26,134 nt of DNA, from UHGV virus genome UHGV-1624389; one strand, 5' to 3'. The notes beneath the pieces were generated by a model. The model saw only the letters and a program-made list of their open reading frames with translations, ran no database searches and was not told the DNA's origin. Each line of letters opens with the position of its first letter. Positions within the stretch are counted from its first letter, which is position 1. Origin of the DNA: a virus. Of this stretch, positions 20,829 to 26,134 are shown piece by piece. A program made the translations under genes and the position numbers.

Positions 20829-21151
20829 ACTTTCAGGCCCCTCTCATGTAACCAGTGGGCTGCACGCAGCCTGGCGTTTTCCTCACCGGCAAGCAGTGAG
20901 CGGATAATCCCGACCGCCTCGCTGTCGTCGTCCTTCACCACGGTATGAAGCGTGATGCCCCGGGCCACGCCACGCTTTATCGTGATGACGCCTTTTTTCT
21001 CCAGTGCGCGAAGATGTTCTACCGCTGCATTCACTGAACGGTATCCCAGCATGGTTGCCACCTCCTGATTGGTTGGCGGGAAGCCACGTTCTTTCTGGTA
21101 AGAAATCAGCATATCCAGCACCTGCTGCTGGCATTGAGTTAACATCGTCAT
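20825..21151 (-). CDS. LexA-like DNA-binding-domain-only protein (no peptidase domain)
   Basis: 108 aa: LTQCQQQVLDMLISYQKERGFPPTNQEVATMLGYRSVNAAVEHLRALEKKGVITIKRGVARGITL parallels the LexA N-terminal winged helix (LTARQQEVFDLI...[43 protein letters not shown]). The ORF stops well before any S24 Ser/Lys domain. Confidence 0.75.
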   Translation of the reverse strand: MTMLTQCQQQVLDMLISYQKERGFPPTNQEVATMLGYRSVNAAVEHLRALEKKGVITIKRGVARGITLHTVVKDDDSEAVGIIRSLLAGEENARLRAAHWLHERGLKV

Positions 21152-21801
21152 GCCGCCATCTCCCTGACCAGTTTTTCCGCCTGCTGGCGAACCTGCGCCA
21201 GAAACGCCTCACCACATGCCTCAAGTTCATCGCGCCCGATGTAGCTGATTGCCGGTCCCTTCCAGGTCTTGTCAAAAACAGCAATAGCACCAGCGAAAAA
21301 AGCTCCTGTCGGTACCTGCTTCTCGTCTTTCGGGATAAACCAGACAGGCAGTTCAAAACCAATACGCCCGCGAATAAAAGCAATATGATCTGCATCTTCC
21401 GGCCACCACACTTCGCTGGTGGCAGCTTTGATCAGGAAAACATAGCGCCCGCCCTTATCACGCATGGCACTGGCATGTTTCATGATGTAACGCATGCCGG
21501 TGATGTATTGCCCCTCATGCTGACTGGCGCGGCTGTATGGGGGATTACCAAAGGCAGCCCCTTTAAGCTCCGCAAGACGTTCTGACCAGTCATGCGCCAG
21601 CGCGTTGTCTTCCGCAGTGTAATACGCAGCACATTTGGCGTTATCACCGTCAGTAAACAGATCCAGAACAAACGGGCCAAACAGGGTGTTAATTCCCCAG
21701 AAAATGTTGTCCGGCGTGCGCCACTGATCGCCCACTTCCTTCAGTTCATGGGCTGGTTTGTTCCGCAGTTCCACCAGCGCCTGGCAATATTTATTACTCA
21801 T
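21148..21801 (-). CDS. Phage N6-adenine DNA methyltransferase (Dam-like)
   Basis: Contains FGNPPYS (the D/NPPY/F catalytic motif). Start set at MSNKYCQ (ATG 21801..21799), which overlaps the upstream stop as TAATG. Confidence 0.75.
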   Translation of the reverse strand: MSNKYCQALVELRNKPAHELKEVGDQWRTPDNIFWGINTLFGPFVLDLFTDGDNAKCAAYYTAEDNALAHDWSERLAELKGAAFGNPPYSRASQHEGQYITGMRYIMKHASAMRDKGGRYVFLIKAATSEVWWPEDADHIAFIRGRIGFELPVWFIPKDEKQVPTGAFFAGAIAVFDKTWKGPAISYIGRDELEACGEAFLAQVRQQAEKLVREMAA

Positions 21802-22289
21802 TAAGCCCCCACGTAATTCCCTGACAGATACCACTCTTCACCCGATGCAGCGCGCTTGCTGCTTTTCCGTAAGCACCGCTCACGACGCGCCAGAAAATTG
21901 TTTCGTTCTGGCTGGGAGTGGCTTTCACGGAATGCCGCCATCCACACGGTTGCAGCACGACGGTATAAGCCCCTGGACTCCAGTTCTTCAGCCTGGCGGG
22001 TCAGGCACAAAATCACCCGTGGATCGTTAGTGCCGACATAGAAATTGCGCACAGGTCTGGTTTCTCGAACTGGTTGTGGTTCCGGTTCCTGCGCTCTCTC
22101 AGTCAGGCGCGGGAAATGTCTGCGTGTATCTCCTTCACAACGGTGAGCCACACGCCCACTCTGACGTAACTTGCTTGCTGACTGCAGAACGCGCTGCCGT
22201 GAGTAACCTGCAAAAGCATCCGCAATGTCTCCGGAAGTACATCCCGGATGGGCTTCAATGAATTTCTGAACTTCATTCAAAAGACTCAT
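21801..22289 (-). CDS. Hypothetical nin-region protein (possible winged-helix N-terminus)
   Basis: ATG at 22289..22287 (MSLLNEVQKFIEAHPGCTSGDIADAF...), 2 nt after the O-like stop. Arg-rich C-terminal half. Not a recognisable DnaC- or P-type helicase loader. Confidence 0.45.
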   Translation of the reverse strand: MSLLNEVQKFIEAHPGCTSGDIADAFAGYSRQRVLQSASKLRQSGRVAHRCEGDTRRHFPRLTERAQEPEPQPVRETRPVRNFYVGTNDPRVILCLTRQAEELESRGLYRRAATVWMAAFRESHSQPERNNFLARRERCLRKSSKRAASGEEWYLSGNYVGA

Positions 22290-22291
22290 GA

Positions 22292-23233
22292 TCACCCCCT
22301 GAATCCTGCCGGGATCTGGCTGTAGTCCACGTTGTCGTAACTGGATTTGAAGTACGGGTCTTCGCGTTTTTCGGTGTACGTGCTGACGGACGGTGATAAG
22401 CGCAGGGAAAGCTCATCCCATTTTTCCCGCAACTTCGACGGGCTGAGCACGTTACGGCACCAGAACGGATCGCGGCTGACGCGGCTGTACATCTCGCAGA
22501 TTTGTTTGTGAGTACGACCATCCTGCACACACATCAGGCGAATTTCGTTTGCCCAGGCTGTCCAGTTCGGTTCTTTGGGACGAACCACCTCGCCGTCACA
22601 TTCGGCGGCTTGCTCGTACAGGGCGATGATTTTTTTCCAGAGCCACTGTGCGCAGGTCAAATCATCCTGCGTTCCCCACTGGCGCTTTTTAGGGCTGAAT
22701 ACAACCGCATCAGGATGGCGAGTTAAAAAATCCTGTTCATCCGTCTGCGTGTCCGGTTGCGAAGCGTCCGGACGAGAAGGTTTTTTATCTGACGGATCAT
22801 GTTTTGATTTTACTGACGGATCCCCGCCAGATTCTGACGGGTGAAAACCCGCTTTTTTGCCAGATTTCGACGCATCAAATTTTGACGGGTCAGATTTTGA
22901 TGCGTCAGATTTTGACGGGTCAGAATCTGACAGTTGAGAAAATGCCGCTGCCTGAAGCTTCGCAACGTTAAGCTGATAAACATTCGACGCATTGCGGTTA
23001 CCCTGGCGACGCGCCTTACGCGTTAACCAGCCTTCTGCTTCCAGCCGTGCGATAGCCGTCCTGACGGTACTCATCCCCGCGCCAATCTGACGGGCAATAG
23101 TTTCAATTGATGGCCAGCACACACCTTCGTCATTACTGAAATCAGCCAGGCGGGCCATAATTGCCACGCTGGATAATTTCATGCCTGATGCAGCGCAACC
23201 ATCCCATACATAGCCGGTTAATTTAGTGCTCAT
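22292..23233 (-). CDS. Replication initiation protein (lambda O-like, N-terminal HTH, iterons embedded)
   Basis: 313 aa with an N-terminal HTH-like region (SIETIARQIGAGMSTVRTAIARLEAEGWL), a central DPSKSDASKSDPSKFDASKSG repeat encoded by 15-bp DNA repeats, and a conserved-looking C-terminal domain. Confidence 0.7.
   Translation of the reverse strand: MSTKLTGYVWDGCAASGMKLSSVAIMARLADFSNDEGVCWPSIETIARQIGAGMSTVRTAIARLEAEGWLTRKARRQGNRNASNVYQLNVAKLQAAAFSQLSDSDPSKSDASKSDPSKFDASKSGKKAGFHPSESGGDPSVKSKHDPSDKKPSRPDASQPDTQTDEQDFLTRHPDAVVFSPKKRQWGTQDDLTCAQWLWKKIIALYEQAAECDGEVVRPKEPNWTAWANEIRLMCVQDGRTHKQICEMYSRVSRDPFWCRNVLSPSKLREKWDELSLRLSPSVSTYTEKREDPYFKSSYDNVDYSQIPAGFRG
22805..22935. repeat. Iteron-like direct repeats (candidate origin of replication) inside the O-like gene
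   Basis: Seven or more copies of a motif with core TGACGG (22814, 22835, 22883, 22913; variants at 22868, 22898, 22928). Five copies are spaced at exactly 15 bp across 22861-22935. Confidence 0.6.
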
Positions 23234-23242
23234 GACCGACCT

Positions 23243-23581
23243 CTATTTCCCTGAATTTACGACGAAACTGTTCGAGCGGACTGAAGCATTCATGCTCATA
23301 ACCTTCGCGGAGGTAGATAACCCGTTGTGTTTCCGGCTCCCAACGAATGACTCTGACGAGCACTCCGTAGTGATCTTTGAACCAGCGGTTAACTTGTCGC
23401 AAAGGACTGTCTCCTTCTGCCGGTTGAAATCACCCACAGCCCACTCTGCAAAGCTGTGGGTTACAATTTCCCTGTCACCTGGTACATTCACTGCATAGCA
23501 ATATTCCACCTTCGCTTTTCCACCCGGTACAGGAAGCGCAATCAGTTGCGAGCGACGGTAGTGTGTTGTTAAACTGTTCAT
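23243..23581 (-). CDS. Hypothetical protein with ambiguous reading frame in its 3' half
   Basis: ATG at 23581 has a good SD (GGAGA, 9 nt upstream). The N-terminal half looks protein-like, the C-terminal half is Ser-rich and low-complexity, and an alternative frame (TTG at 23402 to 23223) reads more like a real protein. See findings. Confidence 0.3.
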
Positions 23582-24147
23582 GCGTTAGTTTCTCCACAAC
23601 CAGAAGCAATCGACGCCACGACGCCCGGAGCTGCACACTCGCGGGCGTCATTACTTTCTGAAATGCAAAAAATTTTGTAGACAAGTGCTGCATGCTCCTG
23701 CAGCTTCGAAATTGAGAGATACAGCTCGTCGTTAATTGCTGTCTTCTCATGCGGTTCCACTACGCCGTCTTCGATTGCTGAACGAATCTGTTTTGAATAA
23801 CTGCCGATCTGTTCAATGACTTCCAGCAGACGCTGGTTAATATCGGCGTTGTCCACATCCTCGACGTCAGGAAGAGACACAAAGACGCCATTTGCAGACT
23901 GCGCCACAGCATCAGCAATGAAGTGAGTGCCACCAGCACGCTGTAAAACCATTGCCCATCCCAGCGGGAAAATCTGATCGCCATCTGCACGAAGGCGGTT
24001 GAATAAAGCGTTCTCTGTTACATCCAGCCAGTCAGCGGCTTCAGCGTAACCCCCCGGCAACGCCGCGATAGTTTTTCTGACAGCTTTCACGTACCACTCA
24101 GGCTGTTTTTCTATTTTCCAGTGATGCTTACCCACGGTTAGCCTCAT
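23578..24147 (-). CDS. CII-position regulatory protein (YdaT-like, putative)
   Basis: 189-aa ORF immediately downstream of the cro-like gene, in the position held by cII / YdaT in lambdoid prophages. No motif positively recognised. Confidence 0.45.
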
Positions 24148-24469: not shown

Positions 24470-25144
24470 ATGAAAACAATCCATGACATCCGGCGGTCTA
24501 ACGCCAGAAAACTGAGAGATGGTGTTGGCGGGAATTCTTCCTTTGCCACTATGATTGATCGCGAGCCAACCCAGACCAGCAGGTTTATGGGAGATGGTGC
24601 TACTAAAAATATCGGTGACAGCATGGCACGACACATCGAAAAATGTTTCGACCTGCCTGTCGGATGGCTCGATCAAGAACACCAGACAACGAACATCACA
24701 AAAAAACCTGATGTTTCAATCACTAATAAACAAATCACATTAGTCCCTGTCATATCATGGGTACAGGCCGGAGCATGGAAAGAAGTTGGATATTCTGAGG
24801 TTGATTTGAGCACAGCAGAAACGTATCCCTGCCCTGTACCCTGTGGGGAAATGACTTATATCTTGCGGGTGATAGGTGATTCAATGATTGATGAGTACCG
24901 CCCGGGAGACATGATTTTTGTCGATCCTGAAGTACCTGCCTGCCACGGTGACGACGTTATTGCATTGATGCACGATACAGGCGAAACCACCTTCAAAAGG
25001 TTGATAGAAGATGGGACACAGCGTTATCTCAAAGCGTTAAACCCAAACTGGCCTGAGCCTTACATTAAGATCAACGGTAATTGCTCTATAATTGGTACAG
25101 TGATTTTCTCAGGAAAACCAAGAAGATACAAAATCAAAGCCTAA
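24470..25144 (+). CDS. cI: CI-like repressor (HTH plus S24 LexA-like autopeptidase domain)
   Basis: 224 aa with a C-terminal ...VIGDSMIDEYRPGDMIFVDP...TFKRL... segment (Ser in GDSM, Lys in FKRL) typical of the S24 fold. Divergent from cro. Confidence 0.85.
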   Translation: MKTIHDIRRSNARKLRDGVGGNSSFATMIDREPTQTSRFMGDGATKNIGDSMARHIEKCFDLPVGWLDQEHQTTNITKKPDVSITNKQITLVPVISWVQAGAWKEVGYSEVDLSTAETYPCPVPCGEMTYILRVIGDSMIDEYRPGDMIFVDPEVPACHGDDVIALMHDTGETTFKRLIEDGTQRYLKALNPNWPEPYIKINGNCSIIGTVIFSGKPRRYKIKA

Positions 25145-25434: not shown

Positions 25435-26134
25435 TGAGTGGATGACAAAGAAGCTTGAATCGCCACGGATAATCTAGACACTTCCGAGCCGTTGATAATA
25501 CTGGTTTTCATATTCTGTCGGTGACATCTGATCGCTGGAACCATGCCGACGCTTACTGTTATAAAACATTTCGATGTAATCAAAAATATCGCTGCGGGCT
25601 TCTTCCCGCGTTCCGTAGATCTTTTTCTTTATCCGTTCGCGTTTCAACAACTGGAAAAAGCTTTCTGCAACCGCATTATCATGGCAGTTACCGCGACGGC
25701 TCATGCTGCCCTCCAGGCCGTGTGATTTCAGGAACGACTGCCACTCATGGCTTGTGTACTGACTGCCCTGATCCGAATGAACCAGCACCTGTTTTTGGGG
25801 ATTACGGCGCCATACAGCCATCAGCAGTGCGTTCAGGACAATGTCCTTTGTCATCCGGGATTGCATGGACCAGCCGATAATTTTGCGTGAGAACAGATCA
25901 ACAACCACGGCAAGATACAGCCAGCCTTCGTGGGTCCTGATGTAGGTTATGTCCGTTACCCAACGCTTATCCGGAGCATCCGGATTGAACTGTCGCTGGA
26001 GCCTGTTGGGCGACACGATACTGGCCTCGCCTTTACGTGCCCGCGGGCTCCGGTATCCGACCTGAGCCTTTATCCCGACACGTTTCATCAGTCGCCAGAC
26101 TCTGTTCACTCCGCACTGTTGCCCGCTGTCCCGC
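25435..26134 (-). mobile_element. IS3-family insertion sequence, partial; extends beyond the right edge
   Basis: Contains an IS3-family orfB-type transposase. The left boundary is uncertain: the TGAGTGG... stretch at about 25435 is a guess at the terminal inverted repeat, made from memory of IS3-family ends. Confidence 0.6.
25474..26109 (-). CDS. IS3-family transposase OrfB (DDE integrase core)
   Basis: 211 aa: ...WVTDITYIRTHEGWLYLAVVVDLFSRKIIGWSM...HSDQGSQYTS...GNCHDNAVAESFF..., an RNase-H-like DDE pattern close to IS3 InsF as remembered. The orfA/frameshift region lies outside the window. Confidence 0.85.
   Translation of the reverse strand: MNRVWRLMKRVGIKAQVGYRSPRARKGEASIVSPNRLQRQFNPDAPDKRWVTDITYIRTHEGWLYLAVVVDLFSRKIIGWSMQSRMTKDIVLNALLMAVWRRNPQKQVLVHSDQGSQYTSHEWQSFLKSHGLEGSMSRRGNCHDNAVAESFFQLLKRERIKKKIYGTREEARSDIFDYIEMFYNSKRRHGSSDQMSPTEYENQYYQRLGSV

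Follow-up and report, generated by a model that had tools for sequence, protein, structure and literature searches.

An abutting 15-bp repeat array within the initiator gene of an SfII/SfIV-type lambdoid prophage as the probable iteron part of its replication origin

UHGV virus genome UHGV-1624389, a 26,134-nucleotide stretch of DNA (referred to here as the window), represents a lambdoid prophage belonging to the SfII/SfIV type of E. coli/Shigella. Positions 22292-23233 of its - strand encode a 313-amino-acid (aa) replication initiator (Rep), which was recognized from the open reading frame (ORF) list, Pfam HTH_36, PHROG 391, and an AlphaFold2 (AF2) model, and which consists in order of an N-terminal winged helix, a disordered linker, a phi80-gp15-type C-domain, and a DnaT-like tail. 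The linker-coding portion of the gene carries an array of abutting 15-bp repeats, and we consider these repeats to be probably the iteron part of a lambdoid-type replication origin residing inside the initiator gene. Origins within initiator genes are textbook features of lambdoid phages. From the sequence comparisons described below, we infer that Rep binds at this site, that the DNA is unwound and a helicase recruited there, and that the site is active as an origin.

A sequence-only reading of the window had proposed that TGACGG-core iterons with exact 15-bp spacing lie at 22805-22935 within an O-like gene and encode a repetitive DPSKSD linker. A 15-bp tandem array inside this gene was indeed confirmed by Tandem Repeats Finder (TRF), which reported 22861-22924 with a period of 15 (4.3 copies, 81% matches) and also of 30 (88%), by a repeat finder, which returned copies spaced 15, 15, and 15 bp apart, and by self-identity at a lag of 15, which was 0.71 over 22855-22935 as compared with 0.26 for shuffled sequence (z=8.7), a value not exceeded by any other 90-nt segment of the 26 kb. 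The element continues past the start that was originally given for it: the constrained block extends over ~22740-22960. Likewise, the five sites at exact 15-bp intervals were recovered, but only two of them contain the exact TGACGG hexamer. On the + strand near the array, exact copies of this hexamer occur at 22790, 22814, 22835, 22883, and 22913, and degenerate phased versions at 22868 (CGACGC), 22898 (TGATGC), and 22928 (TGACAG). TGACGG is not the core of the repeat: its CGG is complementary to a codon that varies freely, and, being common across the window (35 occurrences, 28 of which are outside the array, vs. 14.7 expected), the hexamer makes a poor marker. The conserved unit is an 11-mer, TCAGATTTTGA on the + strand and TCAAAATCTGA on the coding strand, which contains the dyad TCA-N5-TGA and is followed by a 4-nt variable spacer. 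Copies of TCAGATTTTGA with ≤2 mismatches start at 22797, 22827, 22860, 22875, 22890, 22905, and 22920, and none with ≤1 mismatch was found elsewhere in the 26 kb. The last five of these are the cores of five abutting 15-bp units at 22858-22932, which are imperfect palindromes with the + strand consensus CGTCAGATTTTGACG and were identified by TRF, the repeat finder, the motif scan, and the lag-15 analysis; within them, 22919-22931 forms a perfect 13-bp palindrome (GTCAGAATCTGAC). A dispersed copy, CCAGATTCTGA (coding strand TCAGAATCTGG, peptide PSESG), is located at 22827-22837, 33 bp from the tandem block, and the motif scan identified a weak dispersed copy with 2 mismatches, TCATGTTTTGA, at 22797-22807. 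The former reads TCAGAATCTGG identically in five homologs and CCAGAATCTGG in YeP2, L102, and L103, and is replaced in L101. All five tandem units and both dispersed copies fall within codons 99-150, which encode the linker, and the resulting peptide, SDS-DPSKS-DASKS-DPSKF-DASKS, agrees with the repetitive linker originally described. We also considered a 30-bp super-period created by alternating P and A codons, which was rejected, as it is not retained in homologs.

Two further observations concern the same stretch of linker-coding DNA. A terminator-like hairpin, CGGGTGAAAACCCG followed by CTTTTTTG, is present on the + strand at 22838-22851 with a T-run continuing to 22859, antisense to Rep. 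It is placed between the tandem array and the dispersed copies, and its T-run is poorly conserved in homologs. In addition, the IMG/VR entry UViG_2531839147_000009 contains an A6 to A7 slip in the GGCAAAAAAGCG linker run, which causes a frameshift that truncates Rep to 145 aa. This poly-A run (window ~22850-22855) appears to be prone to slippage.

Conservation of the array at the DNA level was examined in six homologs with N-domains 64-88% identical: phiNP from Citrobacter, Kp4871-1 and KpF5 from Klebsiella, Flotzy from Escherichia, YeP2 from Yersinia, and the Stx2a phage Stx2_KH16-043. Where the amino acid was the same, the same codon was used at 181/211 positions (86%) of the linker (aa 99-150) vs. 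189/450 (42%) of the N-domain (aa 1-98), a difference with a Fisher p=6e-28 computed over pairs that are not independent. The linker peptide itself is less conserved than the N-domain peptide. Since the linker is predicted to be disordered, constraint at the protein level should be weak there. Sliding windows against two full-length Klebsiella phage homologs similarly revealed 80-93% same codons at identical residues over 22740-22960, whereas the figures were 20-60% for the N-domain and ~45-65% for most windows of the C-domain, and this block of synonymous-site constraint (22740-22960) is taken as the extent of the proposed origin. Across homologs, the coding-strand unit is TCA AAA TCT GAY NNN, in which the 11-mer TCAAAATCTGA is kept and the spacer codon varies at all three of its positions (CCG, GCA, GCG, ACA, GCC, CCC, GGG, ACC, and CCT, encoding P/A/T/G). 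An additional 80 IMG/VR loci have 100% identical N-domains and are thus informative for copy number, but not for divergence. These near-identical loci contain from 4 to 7 tandem units, always in steps of 15 bp; substitutions in their well-conserved inner units hit the spacer codon, and the few 11-mer substitutions are found in degenerate outer units or in the dispersed copy. Furthermore, Stx2_KH16-043 carries a motif copy, TCAGAATCTGA, at nt 467-477 of its Rep gene in a different reading frame, where it encodes LTLQNL, which argues that it is the DNA rather than the peptide that has been kept. Judged from these codon-level patterns, the array is conserved and selected as DNA, not as protein.

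The repeat sequence was also found to covary with the N-domain. In the phage mEp460_4F5, the C-half is identical and the genes downstream are the same, but both the N-domain (without a Pfam family match) and the array differ, the latter having a 23-bp period with a GGGTCAYTTTGACCC dyad and being out of codon phase. Conversely, phiNP, Flotzy, and YeP2 combine the window-type N-domain and 15-bp array with a different C-domain, and Stx2_KH16-043 combines them with a third C-domain, as found in SfV orf39, in which yet another N-domain is accompanied by 21-24-bp repeats. A further four diverged subclades, 56-64% identical overall and identified by protein search and by reading their contigs, all have a period of 15 with 4.5-5.9 copies. 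The unit of a Rahnella/Klebsiella subclade, GTTCAGAATCTGAAC, is a perfect 15-bp palindrome encoding SESER, that of one E. coli prophage is GTCCAGAAACTGAAC (peptide RPETE), and that of a second E. coli prophage is CCCGTCAAAWATTGA (peptide DPSNI). Despite such unlike peptides (SKSDP, SESER, RPETE, and SNIDP), YCA-N5-TGA and the 15-bp period persist across the subclades. In total, the period is exactly 15 bp in 11/11 family members examined, whereas lambda, phi80, and six other initiators have 20-24-bp periods (PMC7466680 for lambda), which bears out the earlier proposal that the spacing departs from that of lambda. Among other HTH_36 initiators, Phi24B O, RAH1 O, ZF40 gp14, and Vibrio D75 each have a palindromic array of their own, with a period of 21-24 bp. 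By these comparisons, the repeat sequence follows the N-domain rather than the C-domain, the host, or the neighboring genes, and the 15-bp period is, among the members compared, a fixed trait of this initiator family.

The protein encoded around the array is consistent with a replication initiator. Genes labeled 'replication protein O' or 'primosomal protein' in SfIV, SfII, and other phages share 98-99.9% identity with the Rep gene, and a search of Rep against PHROG identified family 391, 'replication initiation O-like' (E=1e-135). Its best Pfam match is HTH_36 (42.9 bits, cutoff 25) at aa 23-70, and there was no match to the lambda O family PF04492 (Phage_rep_O) at E≤0.01, whereas phi80 gp15, used as the positive control, matched this family at E=6e-25. 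The winged-helix DNA-binding domain is encoded by codons 1-98 (22940-23233, - strand) and is the proposed reader of the iterons, based upon HTH_36, AF2, and Foldseek. In the AF2 model, aa 1-100 form a winged helix of four helices and a beta-hairpin wing, aa 102-162 form a linker (pLDDT, the predicted local distance difference test score, <50) that joins two folded domains, and aa 166-280 form a helical domain with pLDDT mostly 85-97. The nearest Foldseek matches of the N-domain are MarR/ArsR-type dimeric winged helices, which are weak (E ~2e-3), a PDB sequence search gave only weak MarR-type matches, and NCBIfam returned nothing useful. The C-terminal helical domain (codons 166-280; 22394-22738, - strand) is homologous to phi80 gp15, with 36% identity over Rep aa 169-278 by BLASTP (E=4e-25).

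Rep terminates with the tail SQIPAGFRG (22295-22321, - strand), which matches the SQIPPGFRG C-terminus of E. coli DnaT at 8/9 residues, with no similarity between Rep and DnaT beyond these last 9 residues. The tail, VDYSxIPxGFRG, is retained on three unrelated C-domain types, and the 'primosomal protein' labels in phage records may rest upon it. From its sequence, the tail may mimic a DnaT contact and thereby recruit host DnaB/DnaC, a reading suggested by the absence of a nearby loader or helicase gene. No paper on the function of a SQIPAGFRG-type tail was found in the literature searched. The surrounding gene order, cI/cro/cII/Rep, agrees with that of lambda and phi80. A cI-like repressor gene (24470-25144, + strand) is divergent from the Rep-side genes, which proceed leftward on the - strand from cI as a cro-like gene, a CII-like gene (23578-24147), DUF4222, and Rep. 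Rep is followed by a PerC-like gene, a Dam methylase gene, a gene resembling the LexA DNA-binding domain, and RusA; no P-type, DnaC-type, or DnaB-type partner, helicase, or loader gene was found among these following genes.

Next to the tandem array is a conserved core block at 22787-22822, defined by codon conservation and GC content, which contains two GATC 12-mers, ATCTGACGGATC at 22787-22798 and TACTGACGGATC at 22811-22822. On the coding strand, the latter reads GATCCGTCAGTA and uses the same codons in 10/11 diverged homologs. The 12-mer GATCCRTCAGAT is found 24 bp beyond GATCCGTCAGTA and corresponds to + strand 22787-22798, for which the coding-strand 12-mer of the window is GATCCGTCAGAT. 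The core block is downstream of the tandem array and is conserved, including at synonymous sites, in all subclades having it. It overlaps the 40-nt window of lowest GC content in the gene (22780-22819, 35% GC), and the AT content of the conserved block 22780-22822 is a moderate 64-65%. We regard 22787-22822 as a candidate common core or unwinding region. The phage's own Dam gene is located at 21148-21834, three genes downstream. Because the phage encodes Dam and the core block contains GATC 12-mers, control of the origin by methylation or SeqA is conceivable.

These features can be compared with several known systems. The lambda origin consists of 19-bp imperfect inverted repeats inside O, adjoining an AT-rich tract (PMC7466680). 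As in lambda, the dyad repeats of the window are located between the N-domain- and C-domain-coding parts of the initiator gene, the initiator gene is downstream of cro and cII, and the N-domain and repeats act as one specificity module (PMC7466680; bioRxiv 10.1101/2020.10.05.325894). Unlike lambda, which has four ~19-bp iterons spaced at least ~20 bp apart, the units of the window are 15 bp and abutting, and, while O has PF04492, Rep has HTH_36, no P gene, and no distinct AT-rich tract. The phi80 initiator gp15 shares a homologous C-domain, and four gp15 binding sites are annotated in its GenBank record within gene 15, immediately following the N-domain, which is the same relative place in the gene as the array of the window. 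It differs in having a PF04492 N-domain, TCCCGAAAACGGGA sites at 20-21 bp, an AT-rich stretch after them, and the P analogue gp14. In gene 18 of phage L, six imprecise 11-bp repeats, TGTCCAACGGA, have been predicted as the origin (bioRxiv 10.1101/2020.10.05.325894). Here too, short repeats within the initiator gene of a lambdoid phage have been put forward as iterons on sequence grounds alone, but the repeat sequence is unrelated and phage L has its own DnaB-type helicase gene. Further parallels are the other HTH_36 initiators Phi24B 'O', SfV orf39, Klebsiella RAH1 O, Pectobacterium ZF40 gp14, and Vibrio D75, and the mEp460_4F5 initiator, each of which has a winged helix followed directly by a private palindromic array in the linker-coding DNA; however, these have 21-24-bp periods, and a 15-bp period is found only in the subfamily of the window.

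The proposal of lambda-style iterons inside an initiator gene is therefore supported comparatively, by the DNA-level constraint, the covariation with the N-domain, the phi80-type C-domain, the fixed period, and the cI/cro/cII/Rep order, but the N-domain is not of the lambda O type and no P-like partner gene is present. As a mechanism, we propose that dimers formed by the N-domain of Rep would bind the 15-bp imperfect palindromes with core TCA-N5-TGA, and that the five abutting units and two dispersed copies would nucleate a Rep oligomer on ~140 bp of DNA. This complex would then open the adjoining conserved and moderately AT-rich block with its two GATC sites, and the phi80-gp15-type C-domain together with the DnaT-like tail would bring the host DnaB/DnaC machinery, which is proposed because no helicase or loader gene lies next to Rep. 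A 15-bp step corresponds to ~1.43 helical turns, such that neighboring sites are rotated by ~154 degrees. Because the units abut at this period, neighboring dimers would be placed on nearly opposite faces of the helix, unlike the ~two-turn spacing of the lambda type. The dimer could read its dyad either as TCA-N5-TGA inside one unit or as TGA-N4-TCA spanning a junction. Several points do weigh against an origin at this site. No strongly AT-rich unwinding tract was found, the best 40-nt window being 65% AT, and no DnaA box with ≤1 mismatch was found in or near the array, the single match being at 22633. The half-site centers of the dyad are 6-8 bp apart, which is short for a winged-helix dimer, and the 15-bp period spans a whole number of codons, as expected from in-frame slippage of a pentapeptide. 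Of these points, the lack of an AT-rich tract and the tightness of the dyad are genuine gaps. In addition, the N-domain and repeats are adjacent, and simple linkage could explain part of their co-inheritance. Finally, the published binding data on the array DNA concern only the host protein SrsR, rather than phage Rep (PMC9181523).

The latter study was encountered through a text search with the 11-mer. It examined the LysR-type regulator SrsR (YgfI) of E. coli K-12 by genomic systematic evolution of ligands by exponential enrichment (gSELEX) and found its strongest peak in the 'yfdO/yfdP spacer' of the cryptic prophage CPS-53, with an intensity of 1206 as compared to 158-278 for the other listed peaks (PMC9181523). 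Several complexes were formed on this spacer in electrophoretic mobility shift assays (EMSA), and a 66-bp DNase I footprint, which required 10-40 uM protein, covered four 11-bp repeats with the boxes TCAaATTTTGa, TCAGATTTTGa, TCAGATTTTGa, and TCAGAgTcTGa (PMC9181523). SrsR activates yfdONMLK, and its overexpression raises yfdO and yfdK mRNA; the site is read as the promoter operator of a host regulator, and a phage origin is not mentioned (PMC9181523). We found that K-12 NC_000913.3 positions 2472864-2473609 are 98% identical over 723 bp to the window from 22280 to ~23002, after which the two diverge, and that the four SrsR boxes correspond to 22875-22930 of the window, i.e., four of the five tandem units, with one base differing between K-12 and the window. 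The CPS-53 array is accordingly the same DNA, although its copy of the gene is truncated at the 5' end at ~23002 and has no winged helix. From this alignment, K-12 yfdO and its 'spacer' read as a 5'-truncated Rep relic, which has lost the winged helix and kept the whole array. There is no sequence similarity between SrsR and the Rep N-domain. This reinterprets a published result: what SrsR binds most strongly in the genome would be the array of a decayed phage origin, with consequences for our understanding of the SrsR box and regulon. A related side observation concerns the PerC-family activator-like gene that follows Rep (a YfdN homolog; 21801-22295, - strand), the start of which overlaps the end of Rep: its K-12 counterpart sits in the SrsR-activated yfdONMLK operon, which is linked to peroxide tolerance.

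From these data, one might argue that the array is mainly an operator through which SrsR activates the downstream remainder of Rep, the PerC-like gene, Dam, and other genes, as reported for yfdONMLK in K-12, with any origin role being secondary or absent. The gSELEX peak, EMSA, footprint, and yfdO/yfdK activation in K-12 (PMC9181523) all speak for this possibility, as does the 98% identity of the K-12 target DNA to 22280-23002, which includes the same array. We nevertheless regard it as quite unlikely. The unit changes along with the Rep N-domain even within E. coli prophages, being TCAAATATTGA in L101 and CCAGAAACTGA in L102, and mEp460_4F5 has its 23-bp unit in front of the same downstream genes; a single host factor would not be expected to have an operator that varies by N-domain subclade. 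Klebsiella, Yersinia, and Citrobacter phages carry the same array as well, and no sigma-70-like promoter was found in 22200-23400. Moreover, this single repeat-rich site supplied most of the basis for the SrsR box, which the other targets match at 6-9/11 positions, and the micromolar protein concentrations needed for the footprint likewise count against this explanation. SrsR binding may coexist with origin function, either as an added layer of control or as a K-12 domestication. A stronger version of this idea, in which the array is a spacer-less 15-bp iteron origin read by both the phage initiator and host SrsR, seems rather doubtful to us, but would have several consequences. If true, a prophage origin carried by more than one third of E. 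coli genomes would be gated by host physiology (stationary phase or oxidative stress), the K-12 CPS-53 array and similar relics would persist as domesticated operators of SrsR, perhaps also acting as decoys that titrate the initiator of incoming phages, and the 1.4-turn spacing would imply an initiator-DNA filament unlike the lambda O-some.

The remaining explanations attribute the constraint to something other than a protein binding site. The repeat could be a feature of the protein only, as a low-complexity S-K-S-D-x linker expanded by replication slippage. Its period is indeed divisible by three, the region is predicted to be disordered, and copy number changes by whole units, from 4-7 in close relatives and ~0-10 across the family. 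However, the synonymous sites are far more conserved than those of the N-domain while the peptide is less so, the sole freely varying codon is one that changes the amino acid, and the subclade peptides differ strongly even as YCA-N5-TGA and the period persist. One copy is also out of frame and the non-tandem copies are conserved as well, all of which makes a purely peptide-level origin of the repeat very unlikely. Even less credible, to the extent that we consider it extremely improbable, is constraint imposed by a gene that overlaps in another frame or by a structured RNA, either mRNA or antisense. Open frames do extend across the array at 22804-22971 (+) and 22810-22992 (-), but they are open because the repeat happens to lack stops in them, and as candidate genes they were rejected, since they are not conserved and contain stops or lack starts in homologs, e.g., in Kp4871-1 (antisense) and in phiNP, YeP2, and KH16-043 (sense +1). 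The fold of 22780-22945 (z=-5.3) and the terminator-like hairpin at 22838-22851 of the + strand would both favor a structured RNA, but folding potential follows from palindromic units. A structured RNA was likewise rejected, as the RNAalifold covariation term was +2.42 (unfavorable), compensatory pairs numbered 1/44, and variation mostly breaks pairs. A search of Rfam returned only sub-threshold microRNA noise. With these alternatives weighed, an iteron origin remains the reading that we prefer.

The 221-bp block is present in 2058/5426 complete E. coli genomes, and the replication module is carried as well by SfII and SfIV, which are serotype-converting phages of Shigella, and by an Stx2a phage. 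No paper describing the origin of this Rep module was found in the literature searched. New here are the spacer-less 15-bp geometry that is fixed across a whole initiator family, the joining of a non-O N-domain to a gp15-type C-domain with a DnaT-like tail, and the identity of the array with a published SrsR site. A precise and testable origin is thereby offered for a widespread E. coli replication module. The 15-bp family and its 20-24-bp relatives also provide a natural comparison of how initiator oligomers deform DNA, and the linker codons would not be freely recodable without risk to origin function. The PLSDB records containing the module are large replicons, misfiled chromosome-sized records, and phage-sized circles, and provided no independent evidence from a mini-replicon. 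Several of the 37-44-kb 'plasmids' in PLSDB are phage genomes that contain the module and have no plasmid replicon typing (e.g., NZ_CP081716.1, a 37,667-bp circular record); they probably represent circles of excised or episomal phage that entered the assemblies. Elsewhere in the window, an ORF adjoining the cI-like gene (25474-26109, - strand) resembles, by eye, an IS3-family transposase OrfB, based upon its HSDQGSQYTS motif.

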